Part shown: piece after piece, positions 1,581-54,061 of the stretch
Numbering within the stretch: position 1 is the first letter of the stretch
Layout: each line of letters opens with the position of its first letter
IMG/VR virus record: IMGVR_UViG_3300024978_000007
Length of the DNA stretch: 64,000 nt
Strand: one strand, 5' to 3'
From: a virus
Made by a program: the position numbers and the translations under genes
The notes under the pieces: generated by a model
What the model was told of the DNA's origin: nothing
Seen by the model: the letters and a program-made list of their open reading frames with translations, nothing else
Database searches by the model: none

Positions 1581-1582
1581 GC

Positions 1583-9427: not shown

Positions 9428-9445
9428 CGTCGCCGCGCGAGCGGG

Positions 9446-11078: not shown

Positions 11079-11156
11079 GGCGGCCAGCGTGGTGGGCCGC
11101 GCGCGCCGAATCCATGCGGGGATGTGCCAGCGCGTGCCAGGCGCTATGCTCCGGCG

Positions 11157-11378: not shown

Positions 11379-11383
11379 ACTGC

Positions 11384-12389: not shown

Positions 12390-12398
12390 GGCGTGTCC

Positions 12399-36408: not shown

Positions 36409-36789
36409 CTATTTCTCACGGGTGGCCGGTGCAGTTCCATGCGCGCATGTGCCGCGGTGGCGGGCGGCGATGCGCTGCACCTGGGTGTGGCTCATGCACA
36501 TGCGCCGCGCGATCTCGCGCTGGCTCACGTCTTGGTCGAGCAGCGTGGTGATCATGTTTTCCAGCGTGGGGCCGCCCAGGGCGTTGAAGAACGTGCGCCG
36601 CGATGGCACCCACACCGCGCCGTTGCCGAATTCGTCCAGCACCACCATCAGCGCCTCCAGCCCGGCACGCTGGGCGATCAGCAACCACAGCTCCTGCGTG
36701 GTCGATGGGTGATGCACGGCGGCCGCGTCGAGCAACTGACGCTCGAACGCGGTCGGGGCTTCACCCGGTCGGGAGAACACTGGATCCAT
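36409..36789 (-). CDS. Mor/C-like late transcription activator
   Basis: IAQRAGLEALMVVLDEFGNGAVWVPS followed by an HTH (SQREIARRMCMSHTQVQRI). Confidence 0.75.
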   Translation of the reverse strand: MDPVFSRPGEAPTAFERQLLDAAAVHHPSTTQELWLLIAQRAGLEALMVVLDEFGNGAVWVPSRRTFFNALGGPTLENMITTLLDQDVSQREIARRMCMSHTQVQRIAARHRGTCAHGTAPATREK

Positions 36790-37912
36790 GGCGCTTCCTC
36801 TCGAGGTCTTGGGCCCACAGGGGCAGGTCGTCGGGCACCGTGCCCAGCGCGGCGTGCTGGCGGTGCGCTTTCAGCGTGTAGCGGTTCATGCGGTTGCTCA
36901 CCGCGAGGTAACGGCGCGTGGTTTCGATGGACTCGTGGCCCATCAACACGCGGATGCGCTCGATGTCGGTGCCGTCGTCGTAGAGCATCGTGGCGAACGT
37001 GACGCGGAAGCGGTGCACGCCCCAGCTGCCCAGCCCGGCGCGGCGCGCGGTGCGCTTCACCACGTCCTCGATCGCCTTCACCGTGACCGGGCCGCCCTTG
37101 ATGCACAGCCCGGGCCGGCCGCCGCGCGACAGGTTCACGAAAACGCTGTCGGTGCACAGATCCGGCACACGGCTGCGCGCTTCCAGCCAGCGCAGCAGCT
37201 CACGCACCACCGGCCCCTCGATCGGCACGGTGCGCTCCTTGCTGCCCTTGCCGAACACGTGCACCTGGCCCTTGCGCTCGCTGGCCAGGTCCAGCTGGTC
37301 GACGCGCAAGCCCGCTATTTCCTCGCGCCGCAGGCCGGCGGCGAGCAGCAGCAGCAGGATCGCGCGGTCGCGCTGCACCACCAGCTCGGTGTGTCCCTGC
37401 TTGACGGCGGCGAACAGCGCCTTGAGCTGCGTCGGGCTGTACTTTTTCGCCTGGGTGGAAACCCGCTTCGGCGCCTTGTAACCCTTCGTCACGTCGCTGC
37501 CTTCGCCGCGCGTGGCGAGGTAGCTGTACAGGCTGCGCACGGCCATCAGCGCCGACCGACGCGCCGATGCCGACAGCCGGCGCTTGACGTACAGCCATTT
37601 CTGCCAGTCGTCCAGCTCGCGCACCGTGATTTCGCGGAAATCGTGGCCCGCTTCCTCGGCCCAGCCCATGAACCGCGCCACAGCTTCGACGTAATCCGCC
37701 ACCGTGGTCGCCCCACGGAACCCGCGCACCACCACCAGGCACTGCACCCACAGCCAGCACGTCGCCAGCCAGCGCGAATCGCGCCACGGTCGCGCCTCCA
37801 CCGCCCGCATCGCCGACGCCAGCGGCCCACCCTCGCCCAGCAACCGCGCGCGCAGCTGCAGCTCCTGCGACGGCAGCACCAACCCAGCCGGAATCGGCGG
37901 CACTTCAACCAC
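36761..37912 (-). CDS. XerC-like tyrosine recombinase 2 (start uncertain)
   Basis: RDRAILLLLLAAGLRREE, GKGSKER, HRFRVTFATMLY, MGHESIETTRRY; complete catalytic set. Confidence 0.92.
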   Translation of the reverse strand: MVEVPPIPAGLVLPSQELQLRARLLGEGGPLASAMRAVEARPWRDSRWLATCWLWVQCLVVVRGFRGATTVADYVEAVARFMGWAEEAGHDFREITVRELDDWQKWLYVKRRLSASARRSALMAVRSLYSYLATRGEGSDVTKGYKAPKRVSTQAKKYSPTQLKALFAAVKQGHTELVVQRDRAILLLLLAAGLRREEIAGLRVDQLDLASERKGQVHVFGKGSKERTVPIEGPVVRELLRWLEARSRVPDLCTDSVFVNLSRGGRPGLCIKGGPVTVKAIEDVVKRTARRAGLGSWGVHRFRVTFATMLYDDGTDIERIRVLMGHESIETTRRYLAVSNRMNRYTLKAHRQHAALGTVPDDLPLWAQDLERKRHGSSVLPTG

Positions 37913-38215
37913 AGCGCACCCCCTCGCGGCCAAAAACCCAAAACGCTCCCCATTTTTCGAGGCCCCACCAGGTTTGGGGTCGGGCGGCATGCCCCCCTGC
38001 TTTTGAGGGGGGGTGTCCTGCACCGACCCCAGCCGACACCCCGTAGGCCGCGCCAGCACTGGGTTTCAGGCATTCGGCATCCGGGTTCTTTGTGGTCTCA
38101 CCGTAGCGTGAGACTGGAAACGAGCGCGAAGCGGGATGGATGGCGTCAGCTCGCCGTTCCGGCGGTGGATAACTCAGGCTGGGACTAGCGGAGAGAACAA
38201 CGGTTAGGCGAGTGC

Positions 38216-38830
38216 TCATGGGGAAATCCCAAGGGAAACAGCGATCTGGCGACGTATCTCGGCCACAGCCTCAGGCTCGTGCCCAGGCGGAATCGGGCGA
38301 TGGACGCGCGATGGCAGCGCCTGCCTGATCGGCTCAGCGAGGGTTTCACCTCGCGCCAGGCGGTCGAGGGCAGTGCGGTACGCCACGTCGAACGCCGTGC
38401 GCACCGCTCGCTCGTCGAGCGTGCGCAGGTTCCACGTGCCAACCGATCGCGCTGCGGCGCCGATGGCTGGATGCGTGAACTCGTGGTCGGTGTTGCGCGA
38501 CCAGGCCAATGCCTCGCGCAAAGCCTGCTGCAGATCCGGCGCCGATGGCCGGCACAGCGCAATGAACTCCTCGTCGCTCGGTGGCCAACCCGTGCCCACC
38601 TTCGACAACGCCGCCAGCCCCAGCTTGGTCGCCTCGGCTGAAACGCCAGCCGCGCGCAGCGAGGCAAACCACACACCGCGGGCATGCGGATCCTCGAACC
38701 TGTCTCGCCAGCGCTGGCCGTACTTGCGCTGGAAGATCGCGAACACCTGCGCCACAGCCATGCGCAGCGCCTGGTCCTCAGCGAGTGCCGGCGAATTCGC
38801 GGCTGAGCTGATCACCTCGCTCATAGCCAC
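38216..38830 (-). CDS. Replication protein P-like helicase loader
   Basis: WPPSDEEFIALC and HPAIGAAARSVG motifs; follows the initiator gene. Confidence 0.7.
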   Translation of the reverse strand: MAMSEVISSAANSPALAEDQALRMAVAQVFAIFQRKYGQRWRDRFEDPHARGVWFASLRAAGVSAEATKLGLAALSKVGTGWPPSDEEFIALCRPSAPDLQQALREALAWSRNTDHEFTHPAIGAAARSVGTWNLRTLDERAVRTAFDVAYRTALDRLARGETLAEPIRQALPSRVHRPIPPGHEPEAVAEIRRQIAVSLGISP

Positions 38831-39641
38831 CTCCGGTGTTGGTGTTGGTTTCAGCCGTTGCCGGCACGCCGGCGATCACGTCGTCGACGAAGCACGCGAG
38901 GAACCCCAGGTTCACCGGGTGCTGACTGCGCTGCTGTTCGCGTTTCCGCTTGGCCCGGCGCATGGCCTCGGCCAGGTTGGCATCGGTGAGCCCGTGGGCC
39001 AGCCACTCGGTCAGCTTGCCGCGGTTCATCGTGCGGATGCCGATGTGCGCGGGGATGCCCTGGTCGGCGACCCATGCCCAAAAACCACCGGCATCAATGA
39101 TCGCGCCCGCCTGCTCGCGCACGGTGCGCGTAGTAGGTGACTTTAGACTTGGGTTACCAGAATCTGCAGAAGCATCGGAGAAATCGCAGTTGCTCTGCTC
39201 TTTCTCCTCTGTGGGAGTTACTCCGTTACGTACGGCGTTAGTCACGGTAGTAACGCCGTTATTATCAGGTCGAGCAGCAGCGGCGAGTGCCCGCTTCAGC
39301 TTCTCACGATGCCGCCTCTGCCTGGCCGCGTTGGTGGCGTCCAGCTTGACCGGCTGCTTTTCCAACCAGTCGCTTATCTCGCCGTCGACAATCAACCCGC
39401 GATCGCGGATGGCGTCGACCACGGCCGTGATCTGCTCCAGGCGCCAGCCCGTGAAGTCGGCCAACGCGTGAGCATCGAACGAGGTCACCATGCCCCTTGG
39501 CGAGGCCTTCGAAGCACACTCCTTGAGATACCCCCACACCACGAAGACGTGGCCGGGCGTAACACCGTTACCGGCAGCGCGCGCCACGCCAAGCCAGCGC
39601 GGATCGCAGACCTCGCCGTGATATTGACGGAACCAATCCAT
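38778..39641 (-). CDS. Replication initiator (O-like)
   Basis: MDWFRQYHG..DPRW N-terminus; NAARQRRHREK; central VT repeats. Confidence 0.75.
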   Translation of the reverse strand: MDWFRQYHGEVCDPRWLGVARAAGNGVTPGHVFVVWGYLKECASKASPRGMVTSFDAHALADFTGWRLEQITAVVDAIRDRGLIVDGEISDWLEKQPVKLDATNAARQRRHREKLKRALAAAARPDNNGVTTVTNAVRNGVTPTEEKEQSNCDFSDASADSGNPSLKSPTTRTVREQAGAIIDAGGFWAWVADQGIPAHIGIRTMNRGKLTEWLAHGLTDANLAEAMRRAKRKREQQRSQHPVNLGFLACFVDDVIAGVPATAETNTNTGGGYERGDQLSREFAGTR

Positions 39642-39788
39642 CAGCGCGTACCCGCCGCTGAAAGCGCTGGGTCATGCGCGGCGCATCCCGACGTGGCAGG
39701 ATGGCAATGCGAGGCGGCAAGCCCCGCAAGGCGCTGTGCAGAAAAGACTTCCCACATGAGGCTCGTCCTGAGCCGGTGCGCGAACTGA

Positions 39789-39816
39789 TCCTGTCAAACT
39801 GTATATTATGTAAAAT
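39789..39816. other. dif-like Xer recombination site (candidate attP or resolution site)
   Basis: TCCTGTCAAAC-TGTATA-TTATGTAAAAT; spacer plus right arm match E. coli dif at 16 of 17 positions. Confidence 0.65.
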
Positions 39817-39893
39817 CGCGCCAGATTCGGCGGGTTTTACATCGGAATCAGACGCTTACCGGCTTTTGACGGGTCCACTTTTGGACCCGATGT

Positions 39894-40967
39894 GTGATAC
39901 CACGCCGTTACAGTCAAATGCAGCCGCCTGCTGGCAAGGGCGAGCTGCTGCATGTGGATTCGCAGGATGCGCTGGCGCGGTTTGCGCGCATCCTGCCGGG
40001 TAGTCGGGCGCCCACGACGGTTCGGCTGTACGTGGGCGTGGTGCGTCGGTGGCTGGCTTACGGTGGAGCGGCAGACCGGCTCGATGCCGCCCTGCTGCAA
40101 CGGTGGTTGAGCGATCGTCGCCGGCAGCACGCGGCGCCGGCGACGATCAACGTGGATATCAAGGCGCTGCGCGCGTTCTACGACACCATGGCGCTGATCG
40201 GTGCCGCTCCGCAAGCAGAATCGAATAATTGTCCAAAAGGGCGGCGCGTGCCGGTGCGCCTGGTGCGCTGTTTCAGCGACGAACAGGTGCTGGCGATGCT
40301 GGCGGCTCCCGATGTGTGCACGTTCGCCGGCTACCGCGACAGCGTGATGATGCGCACGCTGTGGGAGACCGGCCTGCGCGCCAGCGAGCTGGTCGGGCTG
40401 GGCCTGGGCGATGTGCTGCCCGATGCGGTGTACGTGGCATCCGGCAAAGGTGGGCGCAGCCGCTGGGTGCCGATCAGCGCGGAACTGCATGGCCTGCTGG
40501 TCGGCTACATGGCGCTGCGCGCCACCACGCGCCCCGGCAAGCGCGCGGCGCTGTGGGTGACGGTGGCAGGTCGCGCCCTGCGCAGCCGGCGCAGCGTGTG
40601 GGCCATCGTGAGCCGCTGGGCGCGCGCCACGCTGGGTAGTGCCGTGGGTTATGACCGGGTGCGCCGGGCGGCGCGCCAGCGGCCGTGGAGCGGGCAGTAT
40701 CCGCACCTGCTGCGCGCCAGCATGGCCACCACCCTGCTCCGCCACGGCTGTCCCCTGCCCGCCATCATGCAGATGCTCGGCCACACCAGCCTCGATAGCA
40801 CCGCGCGCTACCTGGCCGCGGACATCAGCCATTTGCGTGCAGCGATCGACAAGCATCCGCGGAACCATCGGTCAGCCCGCCCTGGCGAGTCGACCACGCC
40901 GGCGGGCGTGGCGGGATCCAGCGATCCACAGGGGGGAATCGGGCAAGCCGCGGAGCCCGACCAGTAG
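39894..40967 (+). CDS. XerC/D-like tyrosine recombinase 3 (start uncertain)
   Basis: RDSVMMRTLWETGLRASEL, GKGGRSRWVP, HLLRASMAT, LGHTSLDSTARY, C-terminal KHPR. Confidence 0.92.
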   Translation: MIPRRYSQMQPPAGKGELLHVDSQDALARFARILPGSRAPTTVRLYVGVVRRWLAYGGAADRLDAALLQRWLSDRRRQHAAPATINVDIKALRAFYDTMALIGAAPQAESNNCPKGRRVPVRLVRCFSDEQVLAMLAAPDVCTFAGYRDSVMMRTLWETGLRASELVGLGLGDVLPDAVYVASGKGGRSRWVPISAELHGLLVGYMALRATTRPGKRAALWVTVAGRALRSRRSVWAIVSRWARATLGSAVGYDRVRRAARQRPWSGQYPHLLRASMATTLLRHGCPLPAIMQMLGHTSLDSTARYLAADISHLRAAIDKHPRNHRSARPGESTTPAGVAGSSDPQGGIGQAAEPDQ

Positions 40968-41189
40968 CTGGTGGAACTGGTCCCGGCCCAGCCGCAGGCA
41001 CGTATCCACGCCCACGGCGGCCAGGCGCAGCCGGTATTGCTCCTCGGTGAGGCCTTTGCGCGATCGCGCCAGCACGTGGATCATGCGCACCCGGTCCCGC
41101 GTCATCTGCCAGCGCTTGCGCGCGAGCAGGTCCAGGCCGCAGCACCAGCGGTGCGCGGTTGGCTGTTGGCAGCGGGGGCAGGTGCGCAT
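40872..41189 (-). CDS. GemA-like (Mu gp16 family) protein
   Basis: IHVLARSRKGLTEEQYRLRL...L...QFHQLL. Confidence 0.6.
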   Translation of the reverse strand: MRTCPRCQQPTAHRWCCGLDLLARKRWQMTRDRVRMIHVLARSRKGLTEEQYRLRLAAVGVDTCLRLGRDQFHQLLVGLRGLPDSPLWIAGSRHARRRGRLARAG

Positions 41190-41193
41190 CGGT

Positions 41194-41445
41194 TCACTGC
41201 TCCTCGTCGTCGTCGACTTCATAGTCGCCGAGCTCGTCGAACGGCTCGTAGTCGTCCTCGCCGAATCCGGTGGCGCCGGCTACCCGATCGGCGCACACCC
41301 AGCCGCCAGCGTCCGGCAGCAGGCGGAACGCCACACCGGAAGGCATGGACGCATCCAGCCGCCGCGCGGAAATCGCGTACATGGCCAGTGCGCCGTCGAG
41401 GGTGACGTGGGCGCCGATATCGAGTTGGCGGCTGGCGTGGGTCAT
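41194..41445 (-). CDS. Hypothetical acidic-tail protein
   Basis: ATGA-coupled to the methyltransferase. Confidence 0.5.
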   Translation of the reverse strand: MTHASRQLDIGAHVTLDGALAMYAISARRLDASMPSGVAFRLLPDAGGWVCADRVAGATGFGEDDYEPFDELGDYEVDDDEEQ

Positions 41446-43373
41446 GCGGCCCTCGCGTAGAACTCGATCAGGTCGGCCAGGTCGTTGGCCACTTCGGCTT
41501 CTGCCATGTCCTGGCACACGCTGTTGCCGATCAGCTTCACTTGGTCGGTCTTGGTGATTGGGCGCCACTCGAATTCGCCGCTGCCTGGTGCGGTTTCGAA
41601 TAGGCCGCGGTCGATGATGTAGCTGTCGAGGAAGCCTTGCGCCCGGGCCAGCTCGCGGGGCACGAGCATGCGCAGGGTGATATCGGCCAGCACGTAGCCG
41701 CCCAGCAGCACCATGTCGGCGGGCTCGGGGAAGTGTTCCGGCAGGTATTCATGCAGGAAGTCGGCCACCGCCTTGGCGCGCCCGCGCAGATCCGGCGCCA
41801 GCGTGTCGGCCGGCACCTGCACGCATTGGATCAGGCCCATGCGGTCCTTCGTCGGCACCGTGTGCATCGGCTCGTCGCAGCCCTGCCACTGGCCGCCCTC
41901 GCCGTAATACTTGACCAGGTAGGCCGACACCAGCCGCTGGTTGGCTCCGCTGGCGCAGATGGTCGACACCGGATCGCGCACGTCGCGGCCGTCGCCATCG
42001 TAGAAGCCGCCGTTGGCCTGCTCGAGGAAGTGGGCCTGCATGACTGCATGGCCACCGGACGCCGTTACGGTGTTGAGCGGGGCCTGCGCACTCTTGCAAC
42101 CTGCTCCCCACCGCTTCACGCCTCCGGGTTTACCTTCGCCATGTGCTGCGGCAATCAGGCATGCCGACGACAGCGCATGCTTCACGCCACCAGCCACCAC
42201 CGTGCCCAACGGCTTGCCGATGTCCAGCGCGCGCGGTTCTTGCCCTTCGCGCTCGCCGTAGCCGGTTTGCACCAGCGTCGGCGCCACCAGCGAGAAATGC
42301 CCGCCCTTGATCTGCGCCACCTGCGTGCGCAGCGGCTCGTCGGCCGGGAACACGCGCTGGCTGCTGCTGTTGGCGTGCTCGGTCAGATAGGGCGTAACCA
42401 GGGCATGGTGCGTGCCGCCACCCGTGATCGTGCTCAGCGGCTTGTCGATACCGTGCGTCGACGTGTGCGCCTCGCTGGTGCCGCGCAGCGGCACGATGAA
42501 CGGCTGCGGGCAGTTCAGCACGTAGCGCCACATGCCCTTCGCGATGCGCTTCAGCGTGTTCGCCGCCAGCGGCTTTTTGCGGCCGAAGATGCTGCGCGCC
42601 GGCAGGCCGAAGTCGATGCACTCGGCGGCGGTACGGTACGGTTTCAGCTTGCCGCTGGCCACGGCCTTGCTGTCCGGCGCGCCGTGCGTGTCGGCGCTCC
42701 AGGTGATCGCCTTGCCGTCGCGGCGGAACTTGACCACCAGCCGCTTGCGGATGGTGGGCGCGCCCTTGTCGCAGGCGCGAATCTCGCGCCAGTCGGCGGT
42801 GTAGCCCAGGCCGCGCACCAGCGCCGCTACCGGCGCGCTGGCACCAAGGAACTCCACGATCTCGGCCATGGCCGGATGGTCGGCGGCCATGCCTGTGGTC
42901 ATCGCGGCGATGAACGCGCGGAACGTCTCGCCTTTGCGCTCGGCGATCGCGCTGCCGGTGTCGTCCAGCGGGCACCAGTTGACGAACTCTTCGACGTTCT
43001 CCATCTCGATCACGCGCGGGCTGGTGGCCAGCGCCCAGCGCACCACCACCCAGGCCAGCCCGCGGATGCGCTTGCTGCGCGGCGCCTTGCCCTTGGCCTT
43101 GCTGTGGTGCCGGCAATCCGGCGACGCCCACAGCACGCCCACCGGCCGGCCGCGCGTGGCCGCGATCGGGTCCACTTCGAACACGTCCGTCTGGTGGTGC
43201 TCCGTGTGCGGGTGGTTGGCGCGGTGCACGGCGATCGCGATGGCGTTGTGGTTAACCGCCACGTCGGGCTCGCGGTAGGCGCGGGCGATGCCGGTGGATG
43301 CGCCGCCGCCGCCGGCGAACAGATCCACCACCAGTTCCTGGTCGAAGTTGAGGAAGGCGGTGCCGTCAGCCAT
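41442..43373 (-). CDS. Orphan C5 DNA cytosine methyltransferase
   Basis: VDLFAGGGG (motif I), WASPDC (catalytic), MENVEEF, TIRKRL, IGNSVC. Confidence 0.93.
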   Translation of the reverse strand: MADGTAFLNFDQELVVDLFAGGGGASTGIARAYREPDVAVNHNAIAIAVHRANHPHTEHHQTDVFEVDPIAATRGRPVGVLWASPDCRHHSKAKGKAPRSKRIRGLAWVVVRWALATSPRVIEMENVEEFVNWCPLDDTGSAIAERKGETFRAFIAAMTTGMAADHPAMAEIVEFLGASAPVAALVRGLGYTADWREIRACDKGAPTIRKRLVVKFRRDGKAITWSADTHGAPDSKAVASGKLKPYRTAAECIDFGLPARSIFGRKKPLAANTLKRIAKGMWRYVLNCPQPFIVPLRGTSEAHTSTHGIDKPLSTITGGGTHHALVTPYLTEHANSSSQRVFPADEPLRTQVAQIKGGHFSLVAPTLVQTGYGEREGQEPRALDIGKPLGTVVAGGVKHALSSACLIAAAHGEGKPGGVKRWGAGCKSAQAPLNTVTASGGHAVMQAHFLEQANGGFYDGDGRDVRDPVSTICASGANQRLVSAYLVKYYGEGGQWQGCDEPMHTVPTKDRMGLIQCVQVPADTLAPDLRGRAKAVADFLHEYLPEHFPEPADMVLLGGYVLADITLRMLVPRELARAQGFLDSYIIDRGLFETAPGSGEFEWRPITKTDQVKLIGNSVCQDMAEAEVANDLADLIEFYARAA

Positions 43374-44172
43374 GCGCCCTGCTCCCCGCCAGCAGATCCA
43401 CGAACCACGGGGTGTGTCCTGCCGGCAGCTTGCGCAGGTCGACGTGGATCGCGTGGGTGATGATGAAGTTGCGAAGCGCCTGGTTGGTGACGCGCCAGGG
43501 GGCGCGGCCGTCCGCGGTTGGCTGGTGGGTGGGGTCGCGTTCGGCGGCGAGCATGCCCAGGTGGATCCAGCGCGTGACGGTGGTGGGATCGTGGCCGAGC
43601 AGGCTGGCGACCTCGCGGGCGGTGTAGTCGTCCTCGCGCGGGTCGCGCTGGATCGCGCGCCGTTTGCGTTGCACGACAATCGCGGCTTCCGTGCGGCGGA
43701 AGCCCTGGCGCCGCAGTGCGTGTTGCACACCGGCCGGCCGCAGGTTGCGGGTGGCGCGCAGGATATCCAGCTCAGCCGGGCTCCACGGCGCTTCGCGGAA
43801 ACGCGGGGTGGTGAGGCCAAGGTCACGCGCTCGGCGGCTCACCCACCACACCGGACGCGCCAGGCGCTTGGCCAGCGCCACCACGTCGCCCCGCTGCATC
43901 GGGCGCTGATGCGCGGTGCGGATGGCCTCGTCCATGCCCGGCTCCAGCGTCCACGACTCGCGCACCAGCGGCCGGCTGGCGCAGCGCAGGCCAAGCGCGT
44001 TGGCATGCTGGTAGATCGCCGACCGGCTGCGGTGCGGCAGCAGCGCGATCACGCCATTGATGCCGCCCGCTGGATACGCCTCGCGCAACACGCGGATCTC
44101 GCGCGTGGTCCAGGCTGCGCGGCTGATGGGCTGAGGGGGCGCCGTGCTGATGGAAGCGGTGCCGTCAGGCAT
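43366..44172 (-). CDS. Multi-HTH (Myb-like repeats plus excisionase-type HTH) DNA-binding protein
   Basis: WTTREIRVL, WTLEPG and WSPAELDIL repeats; YTAREVASLLGHDPTTVTRWI. Confidence 0.6.
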   Translation of the reverse strand: MPDGTASISTAPPQPISRAAWTTREIRVLREAYPAGGINGVIALLPHRSRSAIYQHANALGLRCASRPLVRESWTLEPGMDEAIRTAHQRPMQRGDVVALAKRLARPVWWVSRRARDLGLTTPRFREAPWSPAELDILRATRNLRPAGVQHALRRQGFRRTEAAIVVQRKRRAIQRDPREDDYTAREVASLLGHDPTTVTRWIHLGMLAAERDPTHQPTADGRAPWRVTNQALRNFIITHAIHVDLRKLPAGHTPWFVDLLAGSRAHG

Positions 44173-44761
44173 GGGGCGACTCCTCGGACTGCTCCAGCGC
44201 GTCGGCGAGGGTTGGCTGATCGTGCTGCACGCCAGGTGTCCAGTCGTAGCTGTCCAGGCTCACCAGGAAGCGCAGTGCCATAGCGGCAGCCTGTTGTGCT
44301 TCCTTGCGCACGTCGTCGGGCTTGTTCTTGTGCGGCTCATAGACCTGTTGCAGCACCGCCTTCGACAGCTCGCCGGCTTCCTCGTTGAAGACGCCGACGG
44401 CGTGCAGCGGATCGGTCGGCCACGTCGGGAACTTGCGGATCGCCTTTTCCAGCTCGTCCATGACTTCGCGGACGACAGCCGGCACCCTCGCGCGCTCGGC
44501 AGGCTTCACCTGAAACTGCTTTGGCGACGCTGCCGCTGCTTGCGCAAAAACATCAGCCTGCGCGTTCTGCGCGAGGGCGGCTATAGCCGCGCGAGCTTGC
44601 TTCTCACACTTCTCCCGCATGCCATGACCCGCAGCATCCGCGATGGCTTTGGCGACACGATCCACCACATCCTCGGCCACCCTTTCCTGCCCTGACGCAT
44701 AAGCCCGCTCGCGAATCGGCGTCTCCGGCTGCGGGCAGTTTTCAATGGGCGTCGTCATCAC
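44165..44761 (-). CDS. Protein with a MazG-like NTP pyrophosphohydrolase domain
   Basis: ELEKAIRKFP...FNEEAGELSKAVLQ...VRKEAQQAAAMALRF. Confidence 0.7.
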   Translation of the reverse strand: MMTTPIENCPQPETPIRERAYASGQERVAEDVVDRVAKAIADAAGHGMREKCEKQARAAIAALAQNAQADVFAQAAAASPKQFQVKPAERARVPAVVREVMDELEKAIRKFPTWPTDPLHAVGVFNEEAGELSKAVLQQVYEPHKNKPDDVRKEAQQAAAMALRFLVSLDSYDWTPGVQHDQPTLADALEQSEESPHA

Positions 44762-45678
44762 GCATCCCCCGGCCGCGGCAGCCCGAACACCTCAGCCAGC
44801 TGCTCCAGCAGGCGGCGCAGTTCGGTGGTCATCAGGAACAGGGCGGCGGCGGCTTCGTCGTGGGCGTCCTGCAGGCTGTCGCCCAGCGTGTCCAGCACCA
44901 CGTCGAGGAAGCGCAGCTTGTGCAGCACCAGGTCTTCGCCCAGCACGAAGCTGATACGGTCGTCGTAGACCAGGCCCAGCTTGAACACCTGCTTGCCGCT
45001 GCGCAGGTGTTCCTTGACCTCCTCGGCGTCCATGTCCTGCCGGCGGGCACGGATGACGGCGCCTGCGGCGGTGGCGGGGTCGCGCAGTTCGCACTCGTCG
45101 CCCAGGGCGAAGCCGGCCGGCAGGCGGCCGGTGGCCAGCCAGTCGGTCAGCAGCACGCGCGGGCCTTCCTCCGGTGCCGGCGGCACGGCGGGGAAGCTGC
45201 CCAGCGCCTCGCGCCAGCAGGTGAGCACGGTGTCGGCCTGCTTGCGGCTGGCGGTGTCGATCACCAGCCAGCCGTTGGCAATGTCGGCATAGGCGGCGGT
45301 GCGCGAGCTGCGCACGAAGGCGCGCGGCAGCAGCTCGGTCAGCAGATCCTCGCGGATGCGCTTGCGCTCGCGGCCGCCGACGTTGCGGCCTTCCTGCTCG
45401 GTGATCTGGCGCACCTTGCGCTGCAGGGCATCGGTGAGCACGGCGGGTGGCAGCAGTTTGTCTTCGCCGCCCAGCATGGCCAGCGTGCAGCCGTTCTCGG
45501 TGAGCGTGAGGCTATCCCAGCCGTCAGCGCGCCCCACCGGCGGCACGAAGCCGCGGGTGAACAGCTCCAGCGGGCCGCAGGGGCGCAGGCGACGGTCGTC
45601 CAGCGCCTCGTCCAGGCGCTGCAGGTCGTCGGCCACGGCGGGCGAGAATCGGAACAGGGTGAGGTTGCGGAAGAACAT
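44758..45678 (-). CDS. rdgC: RdgC (repeat copy)
   Basis: Copy of 142-1062. Confidence 0.9.
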   Translation of the reverse strand: MFFRNLTLFRFSPAVADDLQRLDEALDDRRLRPCGPLELFTRGFVPPVGRADGWDSLTLTENGCTLAMLGGEDKLLPPAVLTDALQRKVRQITEQEGRNVGGRERKRIREDLLTELLPRAFVRSSRTAAYADIANGWLVIDTASRKQADTVLTCWREALGSFPAVPPAPEEGPRVLLTDWLATGRLPAGFALGDECELRDPATAAGAVIRARRQDMDAEEVKEHLRSGKQVFKLGLVYDDRISFVLGEDLVLHKLRFLDVVLDTLGDSLQDAHDEAAAALFLMTTELRRLLEQLAEVFGLPRPGDA

Positions 45679-47935
45679 GGCTCAGCCCCTCCGCAGGTTG
45701 GCAGCGCGGCGCCGCCGGCGTGCGGTCTTGCCGGCCGGCGGGCGGGTGGTGCGCACGTGCTGGAATGGCTTGCGGGCGCCGGTGCGGTCCCTGCCCTTGC
45801 CGCGCCTGTCGCGGCGGCCGGTAGTGGTGTGGGCTTGTTCGGTAGGCAGGCGCGGCAGGGGCGCGGCGTTGCTCATCAGCGACAACGCCATGGCGACCAG
45901 GTGGGATAGCGGGGTGCGTTTGTGCATGGTGGGTTCCTAAGCGGTAGTGGTCAGGCGCGCTTGCCGGCGCGGCGGTGGTGGATAAGGTGGTACTCGGCCA
46001 CGCGCACGATGTGCCGGCGGCGGTCGCGCACCTTGACCATCTGCATGCCGATGGCGATGCCGTGGTCGGTTTTCAGCTCGTGCATGCGGGCGCTCACGCA
46101 GATCACGCCGCAGCGGCGAATCAGGTGCATGGTGGTGGCCGGGCCTCGTCGCAGCTCGGCAAGGATGGCCTCGTGCTGGGGGCTGAGTTGGGACATGCTC
46201 AGTCCTCCCACGCGATGCAGCTGGGCGTGCGGCACTGGCCCTTGCTGTGCACGATGGCGCCGGCCTCGTCGTACTCCACCTGCACGCTGCAGCGCGAGCC
46301 GCAGGCGGTGCAGCGGTAGCTGCCGCTGGTGGCGCTGTAGCGACTGGCCAGGCGCAGCACGTTGCGCTTGGCGGCCTTGCCGGCGACGCTGTCCATGATC
46401 GCCGGCGGCACGAACATTTCAGCGGGCGCGAGCATGGAGGGCCTCCTCGGTGGACTGGTTGAGCGCGGCCAGCAGCGCGTCGGCGTAGCGCACGGCGCGC
46501 GTGGCGTAGATGTCGGCGTTGCTGGTGCTTTGGGTGGTGGCGGGGCTGGCGGCGAGCAGGCCCTGCAGGGCAGCCTTGGCCGTCTCGTAGCGCATGCGGT
46601 CGATCACGGTCATGGCCGATTCGCGGAACGCCGTGACATCCTCCGGGCACTCCGGCATCGGCGACATGGCGGCGGCGAGTGCCCGTGGCAGGTATCCATT
46701 CGTCATCGCTGCGCCCTCCCCTTCGCCGCGCGCATCGGCCGCACGTTGTCGCGGCGCGGGGCCAGCGGCAGCGGCAGGGTTTCGCCCAGCTCGCCCCAGG
46801 CGCGCACGGCGTCGGGCAGGCTGGCGCACCAGCCGGTGCAGCGGCGGCACGGGCACTCGAGCTGATGGCGGTCGGCGATCACGGCGAACTGCACGCCCTC
46901 GCGCTGGGTGCTGCCGCTGGCCACGTAGTGGCGCGGCTCGGTCTTGCAGGTGCCACAGGCGGCGAAGGTGCCGCGCGGGTGGGTGATCTGGCGCTGTTTC
47001 ATGGGCAGGTGCACTCCTCTGATGGTTCGCGCCGCGGCGAGCCAGCGATAAGCGGTGGGTCTGGAAACCGGGAAGCGATCGCACACGTCGTCGACGGACG
47101 GCATCACGTGCTGGTCACTCATCCAGAAGGCGAAGCGCAGCATCTTCTCGACCAGCGCGTCGCGGTTCTTGGTGCGCGTGCGCGGCGTCATCGGCCCACC
47201 TCGCGCACCGGTTCGGGCTCGTCGTCGATCAGCTTCATCAGCTCGCGGCCGAGCGGGGACAGGCGCAGGCACTTGTCGCCGTCATCGCACAGGCAGTGCT
47301 CGCCGCAGCCGCCGTCCGGCGCGTCGAACGGCTCCAGCAGCTCGCTCTCCAGCGCGTATTCCTCGGCATCGGCGCCGTCGATATCGCAGCCGCCATCCGT
47401 GCGCGCAGCGGCCAGCATCCGCGCCGCGTAGCGCGCCACGCCTTCGCTGTAGGGGATGCGCAGCGCGGCGGCCAGCTGCTGAAACAGCACCAGCGCCTTT
47501 TCGTGCGGCAGGAAGTTGTAGCCGGCGCCCACGTAGACGGCGATGCGGCCATCGGGTTGGCGCTCGGCGAGCGGGCGGAAGGTGGTGGGCGCGTTCATGC
47601 CAACTTGCCATGGTGGCGCTTGAGCCACTCACCAAACTCTGTGCCAGAGTCCGCGGCGAGGAAGTCTCGATAGCGCTTCGACGACCGGGTGAGCTGCGGC
47701 GGCTTCGGGCTGTGCTGCTCCATGTACGCGATGCCTGCCGGCGTCACCTGAAAAAGGTCGTCGCCGCCCGTCAATGCGTTGCCGGTATGGCGCGTCATCA
47801 GCCCTCGGATCACCAGGTCGACGCACTGGTCGTAATCCTTCGAACCCGGCCCGGTGACGAAATGGTTGCGGTAACGCTCACCCTGGCCGAACTGGTCGAC
47901 GCCGAGGCTGTGTTGCAGGATGTGCAGATCGTGGT

Positions 47936-48901
47936 TCATCCCACCCTCCTCACGGCATCCAGATCCGCGTGCTCGCGCAGCACGTGGCGCACCACGGCGG
48001 CGGCTTGCGCGCCGTAGACATTGGCGGTGGTGGATTTCTTGGCGTGGCGGGCCAGGTGCTGGCCGGCTTCCAGGCCCAGGGTTTCCACCACGTCGCCCAC
48101 GCGGCGGTGGCGCAGCAGTTGCGGGTTGAGGTGGGCGATGCCGGCGGCGGCGCCCAGGGTGCGGATGCGGTTGTAGGCCTGCTGGCGGGTGATGCGGGTG
48201 CCGCGGTTGCTCACGAACATGGCCTGCTCGCGCTCGGCCGCCATCGCCGGGCGCACGGCCAGCCAGTCGGCCAGCCACGCCACGCTGCGCGCGTTGATCG
48301 GCACCACGGCCGGCTTGCCGCCCTTGCCCACCATGCACAGCTCGCCGCGCGCCAGATCCACGCTGTTGCGCGGGCGATACACCGGGCCGGGCAGGTCCAG
48401 CGCGGTGGCATCGCTTACGCGCAGCGCGCCATCCAGCATCAGGCGCATCATGGCGCGGTCGCGCAGTTGCATCGGCGTGCGCGTGGGCAGGGTTTCCAGC
48501 AGCGCCATCAGCGGCGCCAGCTCCGGCGCGATCTGCGGCAGCGCCACGAAACGCACGTCGCTGTCTTTCGTCGGGTCGTGGTGCAGCCAGCCCTCGCGGT
48601 TGGCGTGCGCCACCAGTTGGCGCAGCACCACCAGCTTGCGCGCCTGGCTGCGCGGGGAAAGCCCGCGGTGGCCCAGCCGATCCAGCCAGCGTTCCACCAG
48701 GCGTTCGCCCAGCAGGCCGATCAGCTCCACGCCCTGCAGCGCGGCAAACTCGGCGAAGTCGTGCAGGTCGCCGCCGTAGGCCACCAGCGTGTTGATCGCC
48801 GCGCCGCGCAGGCGCTTGCGCTGCAGGTAGTGTTCGATCGCCTGCGCCATCGTCACGGGCGCCACGGCGTGGCCGGCCAGGGTGATGAGGTTGGCGGTCA
48901 T
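47936..48901 (-). CDS. XerD-like recombinase 1 (repeat copy)
   Basis: Copy of 3320-4285. Confidence 0.88.
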   Translation of the reverse strand: MTANLITLAGHAVAPVTMAQAIEHYLQRKRLRGAAINTLVAYGGDLHDFAEFAALQGVELIGLLGERLVERWLDRLGHRGLSPRSQARKLVVLRQLVAHANREGWLHHDPTKDSDVRFVALPQIAPELAPLMALLETLPTRTPMQLRDRAMMRLMLDGALRVSDATALDLPGPVYRPRNSVDLARGELCMVGKGGKPAVVPINARSVAWLADWLAVRPAMAAEREQAMFVSNRGTRITRQQAYNRIRTLGAAAGIAHLNPQLLRHRRVGDVVETLGLEAGQHLARHAKKSTTANVYGAQAAAVVRHVLREHADLDAVRRVG

Positions 48902-49715
48902 GGCTGGTCCTCGCCGGTGGTGTCGGCAGGCATGTCGCTGCGGTCGATCCATTCCATGAGCCGCGCGGTCAGCCAGTAGCAGAGGCTGGCAAGCCCGATA
49001 AGGAAGGCGAACAGGCAGAGCAGGACCAGGGCGGCCACCCAGCCGCCGACGCAGTACATCGCGGCGGTGTAGCCGACCAGGGCGAGCGGGATCAGCGTGC
49101 GGGTCTTCATGCGCCACCGCCCGCGCGCTGCAGCGTCTCTTTCAGGGCCACCATGGCGCGCTCGCACTCCAGTCGCTCGGCGGCGCCGAAACCGTAGGTG
49201 GTGCCTAGTTTCTCGAAGGCCTTGATGACGCGGTTTCCCGCTGCCACCAGTTCATCGGCCAGGCCCAAGCTATCGGCGGCACCCTGCAGATGCATTTCGC
49301 ACAAGCCGGCATGACCAGGTGCTTCCATGGCCCGGAACTGCTTGGCCGACTCACTCAGCGCGTGTTGGCAGCCTTCGATCGTCGTTCGTAGCGTCGTCAT
49401 CGGGCACCGCCCAAGCTGACCACGATCAGCGCGACGAGCAGCAGAAGGCAGGCGACGACGGCGAAGCCGGCGCCCAAGGGCAGCAGCTCGGCCGGCGGCG
49501 CGCCGTGGCGGCGTTCCGTGCGGCCGCTCACGACGCCACCGCCCGCAGCTGTTGCTGCAGCGAGTGCCACAGGCGGCGTGCGGCCTGCTCGGCCTGCGCC
49601 TGGTTGTTGAACAGGTTGCCGGTGCGGGCTTTCAGCGCGCCGCTGGTGCCGATCACCTGGCCGCGCCATAAGCCGCCCTCGCGCTCGCCGTGGAAATAGA
49701 CGTCCATGGGTTTTT

Positions 49716-50003
49716 TCATGCGCGTGCTCCCGGCGCGTACCAGGCGGGTCGGAACCGTTCGCCGGCCAGGTCGCCCGCCATCAGCCACAGCGCCGGCACG
49801 GCCAACACCTTGGCCATGGCGCCGATCTGCAGCGGGTCCGGCGGCGTGCTGCCGCCCATTTCCAGCGAGGCCAGCCGTTTGGGGGTGATGCCGGCGGCGG
49901 TGGCCAGATCCTCCGGCGCCATCCGGGCGTGCTCGCGCGAGGCGCGCAGGCGCTGGGCGAAGCTGTCCGCGTGGGCGTTGTGCTGGCGGGTCTCGGCGCG
50001 CAT
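49716..50003 (-). CDS. XRE HTH regulator (repeat copy)
   Basis: Copy of 5100-5387. Confidence 0.8.
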   Translation of the reverse strand: MRAETRQHNAHADSFAQRLRASREHARMAPEDLATAAGITPKRLASLEMGGSTPPDPLQIGAMAKVLAVPALWLMAGDLAGERFRPAWYAPGARA

Positions 50004-51037
50004 CAGGCGAGCCTCCCGCGCGTGCTGGCTTCGCCCGCGATCATCAGCAGGTCGAACACCGCGTCGCCCACGCTCAGCTTCCAGCCGGGCAGCTCCAGGT
50101 TCTTCAGCGTGCCGGGAAACTCCCGGAACGCCGCCACCGCAGCGGCCTGCGCGCCCTTGGGCGTGATCACCGTGCACACCGGCATTTCGCGCGAGCCCTC
50201 GCGCCACAGCGTCACCGCATAGCTGCGCATGGCGCCGTGCGCCTGCACCATCTTGTGCAGCATGCCGCGCGTGCAGCCCAGGTCCGCCGCCACCGATTTC
50301 AGGGTGGCCTTGATCCGCTTTGCCGCGGCTACCGCTTCGGCGGCTTCCGCGCAGCGTTCCGGCGTGGCCGGCCCCACGTACAGGGGGGGGGTCTGGCGGC
50401 GCGTGGTGGTGGCCGCGTCGATGGCCGGGTGGGTGATGGGCGCTTCCATCAGCGCGCCCTCCCCTGCTTGGCCAGGCCGCCGAGGATCAGCGGATAGCCG
50501 GGGCGGTGCAGGCGCAGCGCGTCGATCAGGCGCAGCGGCATGCAGGGATACCAGCGGAGCAGCGCGCACTGCGCGGCGGCCAGTTGGCGGCGGCGCGGCG
50601 GTTGGGTTACAGTGGGCATGTCTTCCGTACTCCTAAGCGCGGTGGGCAAACCGAACGCCTGGGGTTGCCGCCCCGGGCGTTCTTCGTTTTTGGCAGCAGA
50701 CGCTGCGCTGATGGCCCGGCGATGGGCGTTGCAACCCACAGGAAAGGGAGAGCCGTCCCGCCCTGTCTTTATCGCCAGGCCATCAGCGAAACGTCCGGCG
50801 GTCATTGCATGTAGTCCTCGACGCGGATGCCGGCGATCGCATCGTTGAGCGAGCCGCGCGGCAGGCCGTAGGTTTCGCGCGCCGCCGCCATGGACACCAA
50901 CGACCGCCGCGCGGCGCGCCAGCGGTACACCGCCGCCAGCCGCGGGCGGCCTTCGCGCTGGGCGGTGTCGGCCAGCACCTGCAGCTCCTGACAGGCATCC
51001 GCTGCTTCCGCCATGCGCTTGAAGCTGCGCCCGCGCA

Positions 51038-51607
51038 TCACTTCACGCTCCGCAGCGGCTGGCTGTCGCCCAGCACGTGCTGGTGGATGCTGCTTTTGAG
51101 CGTCACGGCGTAGGCCTGCAACGCGTCCAGTTCGGCCAGCGCGGCGCTGGCGTGCGCGGCATCGCCGGCATCCATGCGGCCGTCGTCCAGCATCGGCGCC
51201 AGGCGGTTCACGGTGTCGCCCAGGTGGCGCAGCAGTTCGCCCAGCTGCTGTTGCTGGCCGGCGGGCGTGGGTTGCGGCTGCGGCGCGGCCAGCAGGCCCA
51301 GGCGGTGGCTCAGGTCCGCCAGCAGGTGGCTGCGGTACGGCTGCGGCAGCGCGAGGATCAGCGCCTCCTCGATGTCCACCGCCATGCGCACGCGGCCGTC
51401 CAGCATGCGCTTCACCGTCTGCCGGTTGGCCTCGCTGTCGGCGTACGGGTCGGCGCTGCTGGCAAAGGTCACGCTGCGCGCGTGCAGCGCGGTGCGCTCG
51501 TGGTACAGGTCCGCCACCGTCTGCGCGTAGGTGCGCTCGGTGAGCGCGCTGCGGCTGATGGCCAGCAGCACGTGCTCGGCAATGAGCTGGCTGCGCGACT
51601 CACGCAT
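51038..51607 (-). CDS. CII-like protein (repeat copy)
   Basis: Copy of 6422-6991. Confidence 0.5.
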   Translation of the reverse strand: MRESRSQLIAEHVLLAISRSALTERTYAQTVADLYHERTALHARSVTFASSADPYADSEANRQTVKRMLDGRVRMAVDIEEALILALPQPYRSHLLADLSHRLGLLAAPQPQPTPAGQQQQLGELLRHLGDTVNRLAPMLDDGRMDAGDAAHASAALAELDALQAYAVTLKSSIHQHVLGDSQPLRSVK

Positions 51608-51897
51608 GGCCGTGCACCCCGTGCACCAGCGCCAGGTCCATCGCCATGTCGGCGCTGGCCGCTTCAAAGGCATCGCACACCAGGTCCGGCGCGGTGCCCA
51701 GGCGGTAGGCGCGCTGGGTGAGCATCTCGGCGATGATCGCGTGCACGCCCTCCACCGTGGCCACGCCCTCGCGGCGGATCCGCGCATTGAGCGCGCGCAG
51801 GGTCATGGCCTCGTGCGCGGTGGCGTGGGTCAGGCGGGCGAAGGCGCGGCGCTGGGCCTCGTTCATCGGCGGCATGCCGTCCGCTTCCAGCTGCAGT

Positions 51898-52677
51898 TCA
51901 GACATGGGCTGAAACCTCCGGGTCAGGCGTGGCGGTGGCGCCGGTGGCAAGCTGAGCCATCGGTAACTTGCGGAGCGTTTCGTGATGGGTGCGCAGTTCG
52001 CGCAGGGTGTTCGGGCTCCAGCGCGGCCGGCCGGTGGGGCTGGGGATGGCACGTCCGTTCAGCATGTCCGCGACGCGGCGCAGGCTGATGCCGTGCTTCA
52101 GGTCATCCACCACGTCATCGCGCACCGGCCACGTTTCCGGGTCGCGCAGCAACAGGCGTTCCGCCTGGTCGCCCTCGCCCACCGTGATGGACGTGCAGCC
52201 GAACGGCACGTGGCCGTATACCCTGCCCTGCTCGCGCAGCGCGGCGTTGCACTCGGTGGCGCGCTGCACGGCCAGGTCGCGCTCGTACTGCGCGGCCGCC
52301 AACTGGATGGTCAGGCTGAGCTTGCCGGCCGGCGTGCTGGAGTCGATCAGCTCGCTGATGCTGTGCACGGTGGCGCCGGTGCGCTCGGCCGTGCGGAAGA
52401 ACGTGAGGCCGTCCAGCGCATCGCGGAACAGGCGGTCCAGGCGGATCACCACCACGCCCTGCGCGGTGCCGGCTTTCAGCGCGTCCAACACCTGCCGGCC
52501 CCCTGCCCGCTTGGCCAGCGGCACGCTGGCACTCACGCCTTCGTCGGCGATCGCGTCCACCAGCGTGTGGCCGTGCAGGTCGCAATAGGCGATCAGGCGC
52601 GCGGTCTGCTGGCCCAGGCTCACGCCGTCCTTGGCCTGCTCCTCGGTGGAGACGCGGATGTAGCCGACGAGCTTCAT
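51898..52677 (-). CDS. Serine recombinase (repeat copy)
   Basis: Copy of 7282-8061. Confidence 0.92.
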   Translation of the reverse strand: MKLVGYIRVSTEEQAKDGVSLGQQTARLIAYCDLHGHTLVDAIADEGVSASVPLAKRAGGRQVLDALKAGTAQGVVVIRLDRLFRDALDGLTFFRTAERTGATVHSISELIDSSTPAGKLSLTIQLAAAQYERDLAVQRATECNAALREQGRVYGHVPFGCTSITVGEGDQAERLLLRDPETWPVRDDVVDDLKHGISLRRVADMLNGRAIPSPTGRPRWSPNTLRELRTHHETLRKLPMAQLATGATATPDPEVSAHV

Positions 52678-52970
52678 GCGGCTGCCCATATGCGTGGAAT
52701 GGAAACGCGCCGGGCAAAGGCGCCAGTGGGCAGCCCAACATCCAGCGTGCGCCGCGGTGCACGCGCCGCCGCAGGAAAAATGTCCTCGATGTCGATATTG
52801 GGGAGCAGCTTGGTGATCGCGATCGCGCGCCGCGGCGACGGATGGTTGCGGTTGCATTCCCAGTCCGAAACGGCCTGCTTGGTCACGCCCAGCAGATCGG
52901 CAAGCGCCTGTTGCGTGAGGTTGGCGGCTTCCCGCGCATCGCGCAGGGCGGCGTTGGGCAAGGATTTCAT
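52674..52970 (-). CDS. Cro-like 2 (repeat copy)
   Basis: Copy of 8058-8354. Confidence 0.85.
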   Translation of the reverse strand: MKSLPNAALRDAREAANLTQQALADLLGVTKQAVSDWECNRNHPSPRRAIAITKLLPNIDIEDIFPAAARAPRRTLDVGLPTGAFARRVSIPRIWAAA

Positions 52971-53191
52971 GCGGCCGCCCTGCCCGACTCGGTCGGATAG
53001 ATATGCTCGATCTTGAGTCCCGGCAGCAGGCGGATCAGCGCCAGCGCCTTGCGCGGCGCCGGTTCGTCCGTGCCTGTCTCCCACCGCGACACCGCTCCCT
53101 TGCTGACGCCAAGGGCATCGGCGACGTTCTGCTGCGTGAGGCTTTTGCGCAGGCGCGCCTCTTTGATCGGATTGGGTTTCGCTGTGCTCAT
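52967..53191 (-). CDS. Cro-like 1 (repeat copy)
   Basis: Copy of 8351-8575. Confidence 0.85.
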   Translation of the reverse strand: MSTAKPNPIKEARLRKSLTQQNVADALGVSKGAVSRWETGTDEPAPRKALALIRLLPGLKIEHIYPTESGRAAA

Positions 53192-53270
53192 AGCTGAAGT
53201 TTCGGACAGCGCAACCCATTTGTCAAGTACAGCGCAACCACAAAGTTGCGCGCCTCTATACGCTTGCCGC

Positions 53271-53621
53271 ATGAACACATTCGGCGGGCGGCTGCGAGCC
53301 GCTAGACATAACGCCAACCTGACTCAGGAGCGCTTGGGGGAGCGCGTAGGGGTGAGCAAGGGCGCCATCTCCCGATGGGAGAGCGATCAGGACCAACCGC
53401 AGTTCGCGGTGCTGCAGCCACTTCGGTGCGCGCTGCGGGTTTCGCTTGACGAGCTGGTTTGTGGTTACATGCAAGGCACGGCGGGCGGCGTGGCGGACCC
53501 CTACGCCAAAAGCGACCCACCCAATACCGCTGAGTGGGCGCTGCTCGTCCATCTTCGCCGCGAACCACCGTCAAAGCTTGGCGCGTTGCTGGAATTTCTC
53601 GGGGTCCAGGTCGAATACTGA
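53271..53621 (+). CDS. CI-like repressor (repeat copy)
   Basis: Copy of 8655-9005. Confidence 0.8.
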   Translation: MNTFGGRLRAARHNANLTQERLGERVGVSKGAISRWESDQDQPQFAVLQPLRCALRVSLDELVCGYMQGTAGGVADPYAKSDPPNTAEWALLVHLRREPPSKLGALLEFLGVQVEY

Positions 53622-53638
53622 AAAATCAGGAGACAGGG

Positions 53639-54043
53639 ATGAGAGTTCCGTTGGTGATGCTGTTGGTTTCGATCAGCACTATCGCAATGGCCGCATGTTC
53701 GGTCCGCCCCGATGGCAGCAATGGCCTGCAGCGCGCGTTCGATGTGCCGGGTGTGAAATACGAGCAGGCATATCACCGTGCCGACAGCTACTTCCGACAG
53801 TGCGTGCGCGGTTTCGTCGGTTTGAGTCCCAACGTCACCACCGGGAATATCTACGCCGATTCGAACAGTGCGGAGCTGCAGACGATGAACGGCAGCGGCA
53901 TCATCGTGGCGCGCGTAAACATCGCGGCCACCACCACCGGCAGCCATGTCAATGTGGTCACGATTCGTGCGCCGGCATGGAACGCCAAGGATCTGGACGC
54001 GATCCAAGCAGCCGTAAAAAGCGGCGATATCGTCTGCAAATAG
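53639..54043 (+). CDS. Lipoprotein (repeat copy)
   Basis: Copy of 9023-9427. Confidence 0.65.
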   Translation: MRVPLVMLLVSISTIAMAACSVRPDGSNGLQRAFDVPGVKYEQAYHRADSYFRQCVRGFVGLSPNVTTGNIYADSNSAELQTMNGSGIIVARVNIAATTTGSHVNVVTIRAPAWNAKDLDAIQAAVKSGDIVCK

Positions 54044-54061
54044 CGTCGCCGCGCGAGCGGG

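Follow-up and report, generated by a model that had tools for sequence, protein, structure and literature searches.

What does a tailed phage that encodes its own Xer-like recombinase do with half of a bacterial dif site? This question is raised by positions 39789-39842 of the window, the 64-kb stretch of viral DNA analysed here, where a dif-like sequence lies beside a tyrosine recombinase gene (int; its product is called IntA below). A preliminary description of the locus had proposed that the phage may integrate at, or resolve multimers through, a dif-type site by using its own Xer paralogue together with host XerD. The 28-mer is very probably the attP core of a temperate phage of Rhodanobacteraceae (Xanthomonadales) that inserts in dif, with IntA as the most likely enzyme. 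The familiar elements that use dif, known as IMEX, include CTXphi, VGJphi and TLCphi of Vibrio, phiLf and the Cf phages of Xanthomonas, and the gonococcal genetic island. By definition IMEX carry no integrase; they comprise small filamentous, tailless or satellite elements, double-jelly-roll phages and islands (PMC12715192, PMC4246890, PMC6744903, PMC5357621).

The phage genome and its dif-like site

The window holds a single genome of 44,616 bp, repeated to 1.4 lengths: each base i is identical to base i+44616, and positions 44617-64000 repeat 1-19384 exactly. PHROG matches were obtained for a portal protein (3.5e-49), a tape measure protein of 1037 aa (5.6e-125), central tail fibre J (1.4e-80), a minor tail protein (5.5e-53) and an endolysin (5.2e-47), and an HTH (Cro/CI-like) regulator is also encoded. 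By this complement of portal, tape measure, tail, lysis and lysogeny genes, the window is a tailed, siphovirus-type temperate phage (Caudoviricetes). Nearly all of its genes are on the minus strand. The closest IMG/VR record (G001) is 98% identical around attP, and a megablast search of GenBank phages with 4 kb around the site gave no match. The early region further encodes a 794-aa protein (41442-43826, minus strand) in which a C-5 cytosine methyltransferase domain has long flanks (PHROG DNA methyltransferase, 3e-81). The features at and around the site are as follows.

38216-38830: P-like helicase loader (PHROG, 2e-22)
38778-39641, minus strand: O-like replication initiator (PHROG replication initiation protein, 7.5e-6, a weak match); first gene on the other side of attP
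39789-39799, plus strand: attP core, phage-specific left arm TCCTGTCAAAC, in the place of a XerC arm, which it does not resemble
39800-39805, plus strand: attP core, central (overlap) region TGTATA, the same as the host dif central region
39806-39816, plus strand: attP core, XerD-binding-arm mimic TTATGTAAAAT, identical at 11/11 positions to the commonest Rhodanobacteraceae dif arm
39808-39842: imperfect palindrome (hairpin) ATGTAAAATCGCGCC...GGCGGGTTTTACAT, overlapping the outer XerD arm
39871-39888, plus strand: hairpin GGGTCCA-CTTT-TGGACCC, directly upstream of the int start codon
39894-40967, plus strand: IntA, a 357-aa Xer-like simple tyrosine recombinase with a core-binding and a catalytic domain, 77 bp from the XerD arm
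40872-41222, minus strand: gene of 116 aa that converges on int and shares 96 nt with its 3' end (40872-40967)

The spacer, the XerD arm and the other sequences that had been reported at this locus were found exactly where they were said to be, including TTTTACAT at 39835-39842. The 17-mer TGTATATTATGTTAAAT, which comprises the central region and XerD arm of E. coli dif, has a single match in the window, with one mismatch, when up to three are allowed, and no match in 100 dinucleotide-preserving shuffles. For an almost pure A+T 17-mer in a genome of 68% G+C, the number of chance matches expected is roughly 1e-6, and the match is far beyond chance. The agreement of the XerD arm with dif, given earlier as 10/11, holds for E. 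coli; against the host lineage it rises to 11/11. The central region and XerD arm together match host dif at 17/17 positions, and the single difference from E. coli is a variant of the host lineage. On the other side, the left arm agrees with the XerC arm at only 3-4 of 11 positions, and the idea that it is a XerC arm in disguise was rejected. A resemblance of the left arm to TTATGTCAAAT (8/11 by eye), as though it were a direct-repeat copy of the XerD arm, is absent in distant relatives and is probably meaningless.

To the right of the core, the XerD arm had been described as forming a hairpin with 39835-39842. The inverted repeat is present but longer than was claimed, extending as an imperfect palindrome over 39808-39842. 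As DNA, it folds with -10.7 kcal/mol (z = -3.4), and none of 200 shuffles folds as well. A hairpin or inverted repeat also stands just right of the XerD arm at six related loci (L003-L006, L053 and L054), each time with a different sequence; both halves are altered without compensation in variant L051; and the motif was not found beyond a Rhodanobacteraceae subclade. The palindrome is a candidate for an accessory binding site or for a weak terminator that works in both directions; as a functional structure it is not relied on here, given the uncompensated variant and the restriction to one subclade. The same subclade shows a weak inverted motif resembling the XerD arm (TTTCACRTAA), 17-19 bp right of the arm.

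The setting of the site bears on two further readings, in which it would be mainly a cer/psi-like multimer-resolution site or a chance AT-rich promoter region. It had been placed in a gap inside a single minus-strand operon; the recombinase on its right proved to be on the plus strand, and the gap is a divergent intergenic region, as would suit a promoter. The left arm, moreover, contains TTGACA on the minus strand. A promoter and terminator scan of 39500-40100 nevertheless returned nothing on either strand and no sigma-70-like promoter, so that this TTGACA is not part of a recognisable one; an Rfam search of 39400-40100 matched no family. The cer and psi sites possess both Xer arms and approx. 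180 bp of accessory sequence and resolve multimers at directly repeated copies. Both Xer arms would be expected of a resolution site, and here the XerC arm is missing. Plasmids do use dif-like sites for resolution (PMC5357621); however, the prophage junctions described below fall exactly at the site and contradict resolution or promotion as its sole function. As accounts of the main role of the site, these readings can scarcely be credited, while an extra role in resolution besides integration is possible.

Related prophages are integrated at dif

A protein-guided scan of species-representative genomes found relatives of IntA with 78-80% identity in Rhodanobacter glycinis, Dyella sedimenti, D. 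amyloliquefaciens and D. ginsengisoli. At all four loci, homology to the phage begins at window positions 39800-39860 and continues rightward, over int and on into the early genes, and the DNA to the left is unrelated host sequence. The int-side junction (attL) reads (A)TT(T/G)CGCATAA-TGTATA-TTATGTAAAAT followed by int, and is a complete 28-bp dif. In three of the genomes, the far junction (attR) reads CTGTCAAAC-TGTATA-TTATGT(AAAAT or CAACT) and is followed by host DNA. The distance from attL to attR is 41.5-44.6 kb in R. glycinis, D. amyloliquefaciens and D. ginsengisoli, and each of these three lysogen genomes has precisely two copies of the 12-mer TGTATATTATGT. The arm CTGTCAAAC is identical at attR of three prophages and recurs in 10 metagenome contigs. 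Several metagenome contigs show attR-type junctions with varied host flanks and XerD-arm variants. Free forms, with phage genes on both sides of attP, are represented by the window, by G001 (which has terminal repeats) and by L052, L054, L105, L106 and L108.

The hexamer TGTATA is common to attP, attL, attR and host dif. In R. glycinis, the XerD arm of attL is the phage version (AAAAT) and that of attR the host version (CAACT); this difference confines the crossover to TGTATATTATGT, in keeping with an exchange at the central region, and TGTATA is the probable zone of strand exchange. Thus, attP is a half-dif, attB is dif, exchange takes place within 12 bp, attL is a complete dif, and attR is without the XerC arm. 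The proposal that the phage integrates at a dif-type site is borne out: attL and attR of related prophages coincide exactly with the 28-mer, within the one dif that the host chromosome possesses, and not with tRNA genes. An empty attB with matching flanks was absent from 29 dif loci of the family, because terminus flanks are not conserved between species, and the predicted empty junction of R. glycinis had no exact match in metagenomes.

The locus of D. sedimenti (L004, NZ_JAKWJO010000003.1, 9880-11270) differs in that only int and the 116-aa gene are left beside a single dif. The 12-mer occurs only once, and no further phage gene lies within 10 kb. The locus is a decayed prophage, the phage-derived XerD arm of which has been left in the working dif of the host. 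It was also considered as a test of whether Int and attP form a portable cassette; as a mere remnant, it is uninformative on modularity.

The gene map agrees with the suggestion that integration would cut the early genes from the O- and P-like and late genes; in the prophage, the O-like and P-like genes come to adjoin attR. In the free genome, the early minus-strand transcript is antisense to int; beyond int it crosses attP and continues with the O/P-like and late genes. The 116-aa gene has homologues adjoining int in L003-L006 (61-83% identity by tblastn) and no significant Pfam or PHROG match; it is possibly a directionality or regulatory factor.

The target is the single chromosomal dif at the terminus

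The 18-mer of dif, with at most one mismatch allowed, is single-copy in 42 of 61 Rhodanobacteraceae genomes. The consensus of 30 dif loci is A(T/C)T(G/T)CGCATAA-TGTATA-TTATGT(A/C)AAAT, and the arm carried by the phage, TTATGTAAAAT, is found in half of them (15/30). Comparison with the dif sites of the host family, which had been suggested as a check, therefore gives the full 17/17 agreement noted above. The host of the window itself is placed solely through the family of its prophage relatives. In lysogens G002 and G004, attL is the sole full dif, and in R. glycinis the phage copy of the arm in attL completes the only full dif of the genome. Unusual XerD arms (TTATGTCAACT, TTATGTCCAAT, TTATGTCTACT and TTATGTCGTCT) were seen at the family dif sites L028 and L046-L048; some of these loci, instead of being native dif, could mark the junctions of other elements inserted there.

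The R. glycinis prophage is located at the terminus. In the 80 kb on one side of it, GGGNAGGG occurs 13 times on the top strand and never on the bottom strand, as against 1 and 10 times on the other side, and GC skew flips sign across the prophage; both switches indicate insertion at the point where KOPS converge. The prophage's own GGGNAGGG motifs (6 vs 2, and 11 vs 2 in the window phage) point towards attL, which is the direction that FtsK would need in order to reach the rebuilt dif. This bias may partly reflect coding-strand composition (control motif, 1 vs 6).

Int and a half-dif remain linked across the wider family

In every relative examined, down to 38% Int identity, a dif or half-dif is located 65-147 bp upstream of int. 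The distant members (38-55%) are a Thioalbus denitrificans prophage, P0038, P0043, P0046, P0057, P0079, P0085, P0086 and KY697807. The motif is thus conserved in relatives, as it should be if the preliminary description was right, and its central region tracks the dif variants of the hosts: a phage with a 76%-identical Int has the central region TGTCTA, as do some host dif sites, with GGTCAAAC as its left arm, and central regions differ between hosts among the 38-55% relatives. The left arm also differs in distant relatives, where it is TCCTAAACAAA, GCCTAAATAGC, ATAATAACCAA, GTGGAAGCTTA or ACCTAAGCCAC. Phage-type contigs, with phage genes on both sides of the site, carry the left arms GCCTAAATAGC, ATAATAACCAA and GTGGAAGCTTA, which are unrelated to the XerC arm.

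The Thioalbus denitrificans prophage (39.7 kb) is bounded by AGTTCGCATAA-TATAGA-TTATGTTAAAT on the int side and by TCCTAAACAAA-TATAGA-TTATGTTAAAT at the far end, where a P-like gene again adjoins attR. Microcystis phage MACPNOA1 (L109, GenBank KY697807.1, 1950-2110), the sole GenBank phage found by protein search, encodes an Int of the IntA clade (48%), which is preceded by ACCTAAGCCAC-TGTATA-TTATGTCAAAC. This half-dif is of proteobacterial type, so that the true lysogenic host may not be Microcystis but a proteobacterium present in the culture.

IntA is a simple tyrosine recombinase outside XerC and XerD

The Xer-like recombinase that had been noticed beside the site is intact, and its position next to the XerD arm is retained in relatives. 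Its likely start is the GTG at 39894, given that the N-terminal MIPRRY is kept with synonymous changes. Pfam domains Phage_integrase (5e-22) and Phage_int_SAM_1 span residues 29-310 of 357, and alignment to the structures of XerA and XerD begins at approx. residue 17 of a 349-aa query. This coverage leaves no room for an arm-binding domain. Heterobivalent integrases of the lambda type have an N-terminal arm-binding domain, arm-type sites and an attP of approx. 250 bp. No arm-type repeats of such an attP were identified here, other than the weak inverted motif resembling the XerD arm that close relatives show at +17 to +19.

The catalytic set R-K-H-R-H-Y is intact: R162, K185, H271, R274, H297 and Y306 show no variation when host XerC and XerD, to which IntA is 26-29% identical, are included in the alignment. 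Members of the IntA family share a conserved insertion of approx. 12 residues (...RPWSGQY) before the HxxR motif. IntA scores 127 bits with the XerC model (cut-off 335), 120 with XerD (330) and 40 with XerS (267), the XerC and XerD cut-offs being those of NCBIfam equivalogs. In a maximum-likelihood tree, IntA and its relatives form a monophyletic clade of their own (99/97 support) outside XerC and XerD. Judged by domains, scores and phylogeny, IntA is a simple (Xer-like) tyrosine recombinase and not an orthologue of XerC or XerD, both of which are encoded in all four host genomes (three lysogens and the D. sedimenti remnant).

The hairpin directly upstream of int has a stem that covaries in relatives at 48-55% Int identity, with GGG...CCC and the following GTGATA invariant, and it matched no Rfam family. 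It may be an RBS-occluding element and is a candidate for translational or transcriptional control of int.

Mechanism of integration and the enzymes involved

The junctions point to site-specific recombination of the tyrosine-recombinase type between attP and chromosomal dif, with strand exchange that would take place in or at the 6-bp TGTATA. The half-dif of attP brings only the central region and the XerD arm to the reaction. In the integrated form, the host XerC arm, the central region and the phage XerD arm are joined at attL into a complete dif, which presumably works as such, so that the lysogen would still resolve chromosome dimers. The phage arm, the central region and the host XerD arm meet at attR; without a XerC arm, this junction should be a poor substrate for XerCD, and the prophage would thereby be shielded from FtsK-XerCD excision. 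The XerD arm would be kept in attP because dif must be rebuilt at attL, and it can be explained in this way without XerD taking part in integration. Catalysis by IntA is strongly suggested by the canonical position of its gene and by the linkage of gene and site over deep divergence.

How far host proteins might share in the reaction is a matter on which the arms of attP can be read in two ways. Closest to the preliminary description is a hybrid synapse in which host XerD would occupy the XerD arms and host XerC the XerC arm of dif, with IntA replacing XerC on the phage arm. Such a complex would account for the 11/11 agreement of the attP XerD arm with host dif and for a phage-specific left arm that is unlike the right one, as expected with two different proteins; it also fits the place of IntA in the Xer-like group, its 26-29% identity to XerC and XerD, and the presence of both host proteins in every host genome. 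However, the rebuilding of dif at attL explains the retained XerD arm equally well, the left arm varies across the Int family and leaves no evident conserved contact with IntA, and in the tree IntA neither falls within XerC nor is its sister group. The hybrid complex is therefore possible, if rather unlikely. The left arm is also awkward for a single recombinase acting on four half-sites, being neither symmetric to the right arm nor conserved in the family. If the hybrid synapse did exist, a phage subunit would sit in the machine for dimer resolution and would control integration and excision at dif; it would be the first heteromeric recombinase made of viral and cellular tyrosine recombinases.

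It could also be supposed that the phage behaves as a pure IMEX, which host XerCD alone would integrate, with IntA left to another task (excision, regulation or dimer resolution). Vibrio phages devoid of an integrase do use 17-bp dif mimics with a single arm (PMC12715192), and XerCD can recombine sites in which one arm is defective, given an activator (PMC6744903). The activator XafT/DUF3653, though, was not detected in G001 (six frames) or in 27 window ORFs scanned against Pfam, and the missing arm is that of XerC, the default active partner. Moreover, int and the site are 65-147 bp apart in all relatives down to 38% identity, which is the canonical int-attP layout. Integration by XerCD alone is accordingly considered very improbable.

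IntA is one of four recombinases in 44.6 kb; the other three are listed here.

36761-38059, minus strand: tyrosine recombinase IntB, catalytic domain recognisable
3320-4501, minus strand: tyrosine recombinase IntC, catalytic domain recognisable
7282-8241, minus strand: serine recombinase of 319 aa with Resolvase and Recombinase domains

One of these might act at the site, alone or paired with IntA. An IntB-like gene stands 1.5-2 kb beyond (left of) attP in the window and in the distant relatives L082 and L083, and IntB, IntC and the serine recombinase are mostly conserved in the Dyella and Rhodanobacter prophages, so that presence or absence cannot single out IntA. Nevertheless, IntA alone is found directly at the site throughout the relatives, and at dif in D. 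sedimenti the remnant keeps IntA with none of the others within 10 kb. As regards the serine recombinase, the 17 bp that attP and attB share, with a 6-bp spacer among them, bear the signature of tyrosine recombinases instead. It is highly improbable that any of the three, rather than IntA by itself, acts here.

Comparison with known systems

With IntA as the likely enzyme, the phage shares with IMEX its insertion in dif via an attP that mimics dif, whereby one junction is dif and the other a defective pseudo-dif. As was proposed for the gonococcal island (PMC6744903), degeneracy of an arm plausibly blocks FtsK-dependent excision, an analogy that would extend to attR. The phage departs from IMEX in that it is tailed, 44.6 kb long and equipped with a dedicated Xer-like recombinase gene next to attP, and in that no XafT/DUF3653 was found. 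In the one-armed dif phages, attP likewise consists of the central region and a single Xer arm (17 bp) rather than a full 28-bp dif; those phages, however, have xafT and rstR at their ends and use host XerCD, whereas here the neighbouring gene encodes a tyrosine recombinase (PMC12715192). IMEX of the TLCphi type employ XafT and have a defective XerD arm, while in the present attP the XerD arm is intact and the XerC arm missing.

IntA can also be compared with other simple recombinases. Like XerS/difSL and XerH/difH, it is a two-domain Xer-like protein encoded beside an asymmetric site on which it presumably acts. Unlike XerS and XerH, which are chromosomal enzymes of dimer resolution, it is phage-borne, and its target is a classical XerCD-type dif. 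That Xer-like enzymes can mobilise elements is known from XerT of Helicobacter TnPZ (PMC5357621, PMC8138268). Simple tyrosine-recombinase integrases were present in 27 of 437 phages surveyed; the survey assigns few phage enzymes to the Xer subgroup and makes no mention of dif as a target (PMC8138268), nor was a dif target for phage simple recombinases reported in the searchable literature. The Int of mycobacteriophage Brujita resembles IntA as a phage integrase without an arm-binding domain, but integrases of the Brujita type belong to another subgroup and target tRNA genes. As with the tRNA-targeting integrases of lambda, P4 and HP1, attP copies the part of the target that is displaced, and the target is rebuilt at one junction; in the present case, the target is a protein-binding recombination site and not a gene, and IntA is without the arm-binding domain of those enzymes. 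Carnoy and Roten observed that integrase or transposase genes often flank dif, which was not analysed further there (PMC2731167). No account of a tailed phage that targets dif by means of a Xer-like integrase of its own was found in the literature searched.

Significance

The combination of a half-dif attP with a dedicated Xer-like integrase defines a clade of tailed phages that is represented in Rhodanobacter, Dyella and Thioalbus, in many metagenome contigs and by one GenBank phage. Since the dif target is widely conserved, the integrase could serve genome engineering, and an Xer-like int together with a half-dif would provide a base-precise marker of prophage borders at the terminus. The system raises the questions of how directionality is achieved without an arm-binding domain, whether viral and host Xer proteins cooperate, and how an insert of 40-45 kb beside dif is reconciled with dimer resolution guided by FtsK and KOPS. 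For these bacteria and their viruses, phages of the IntA clade would represent a second route to the dif hotspot, in which a phage has repurposed an enzyme of the Xer type.
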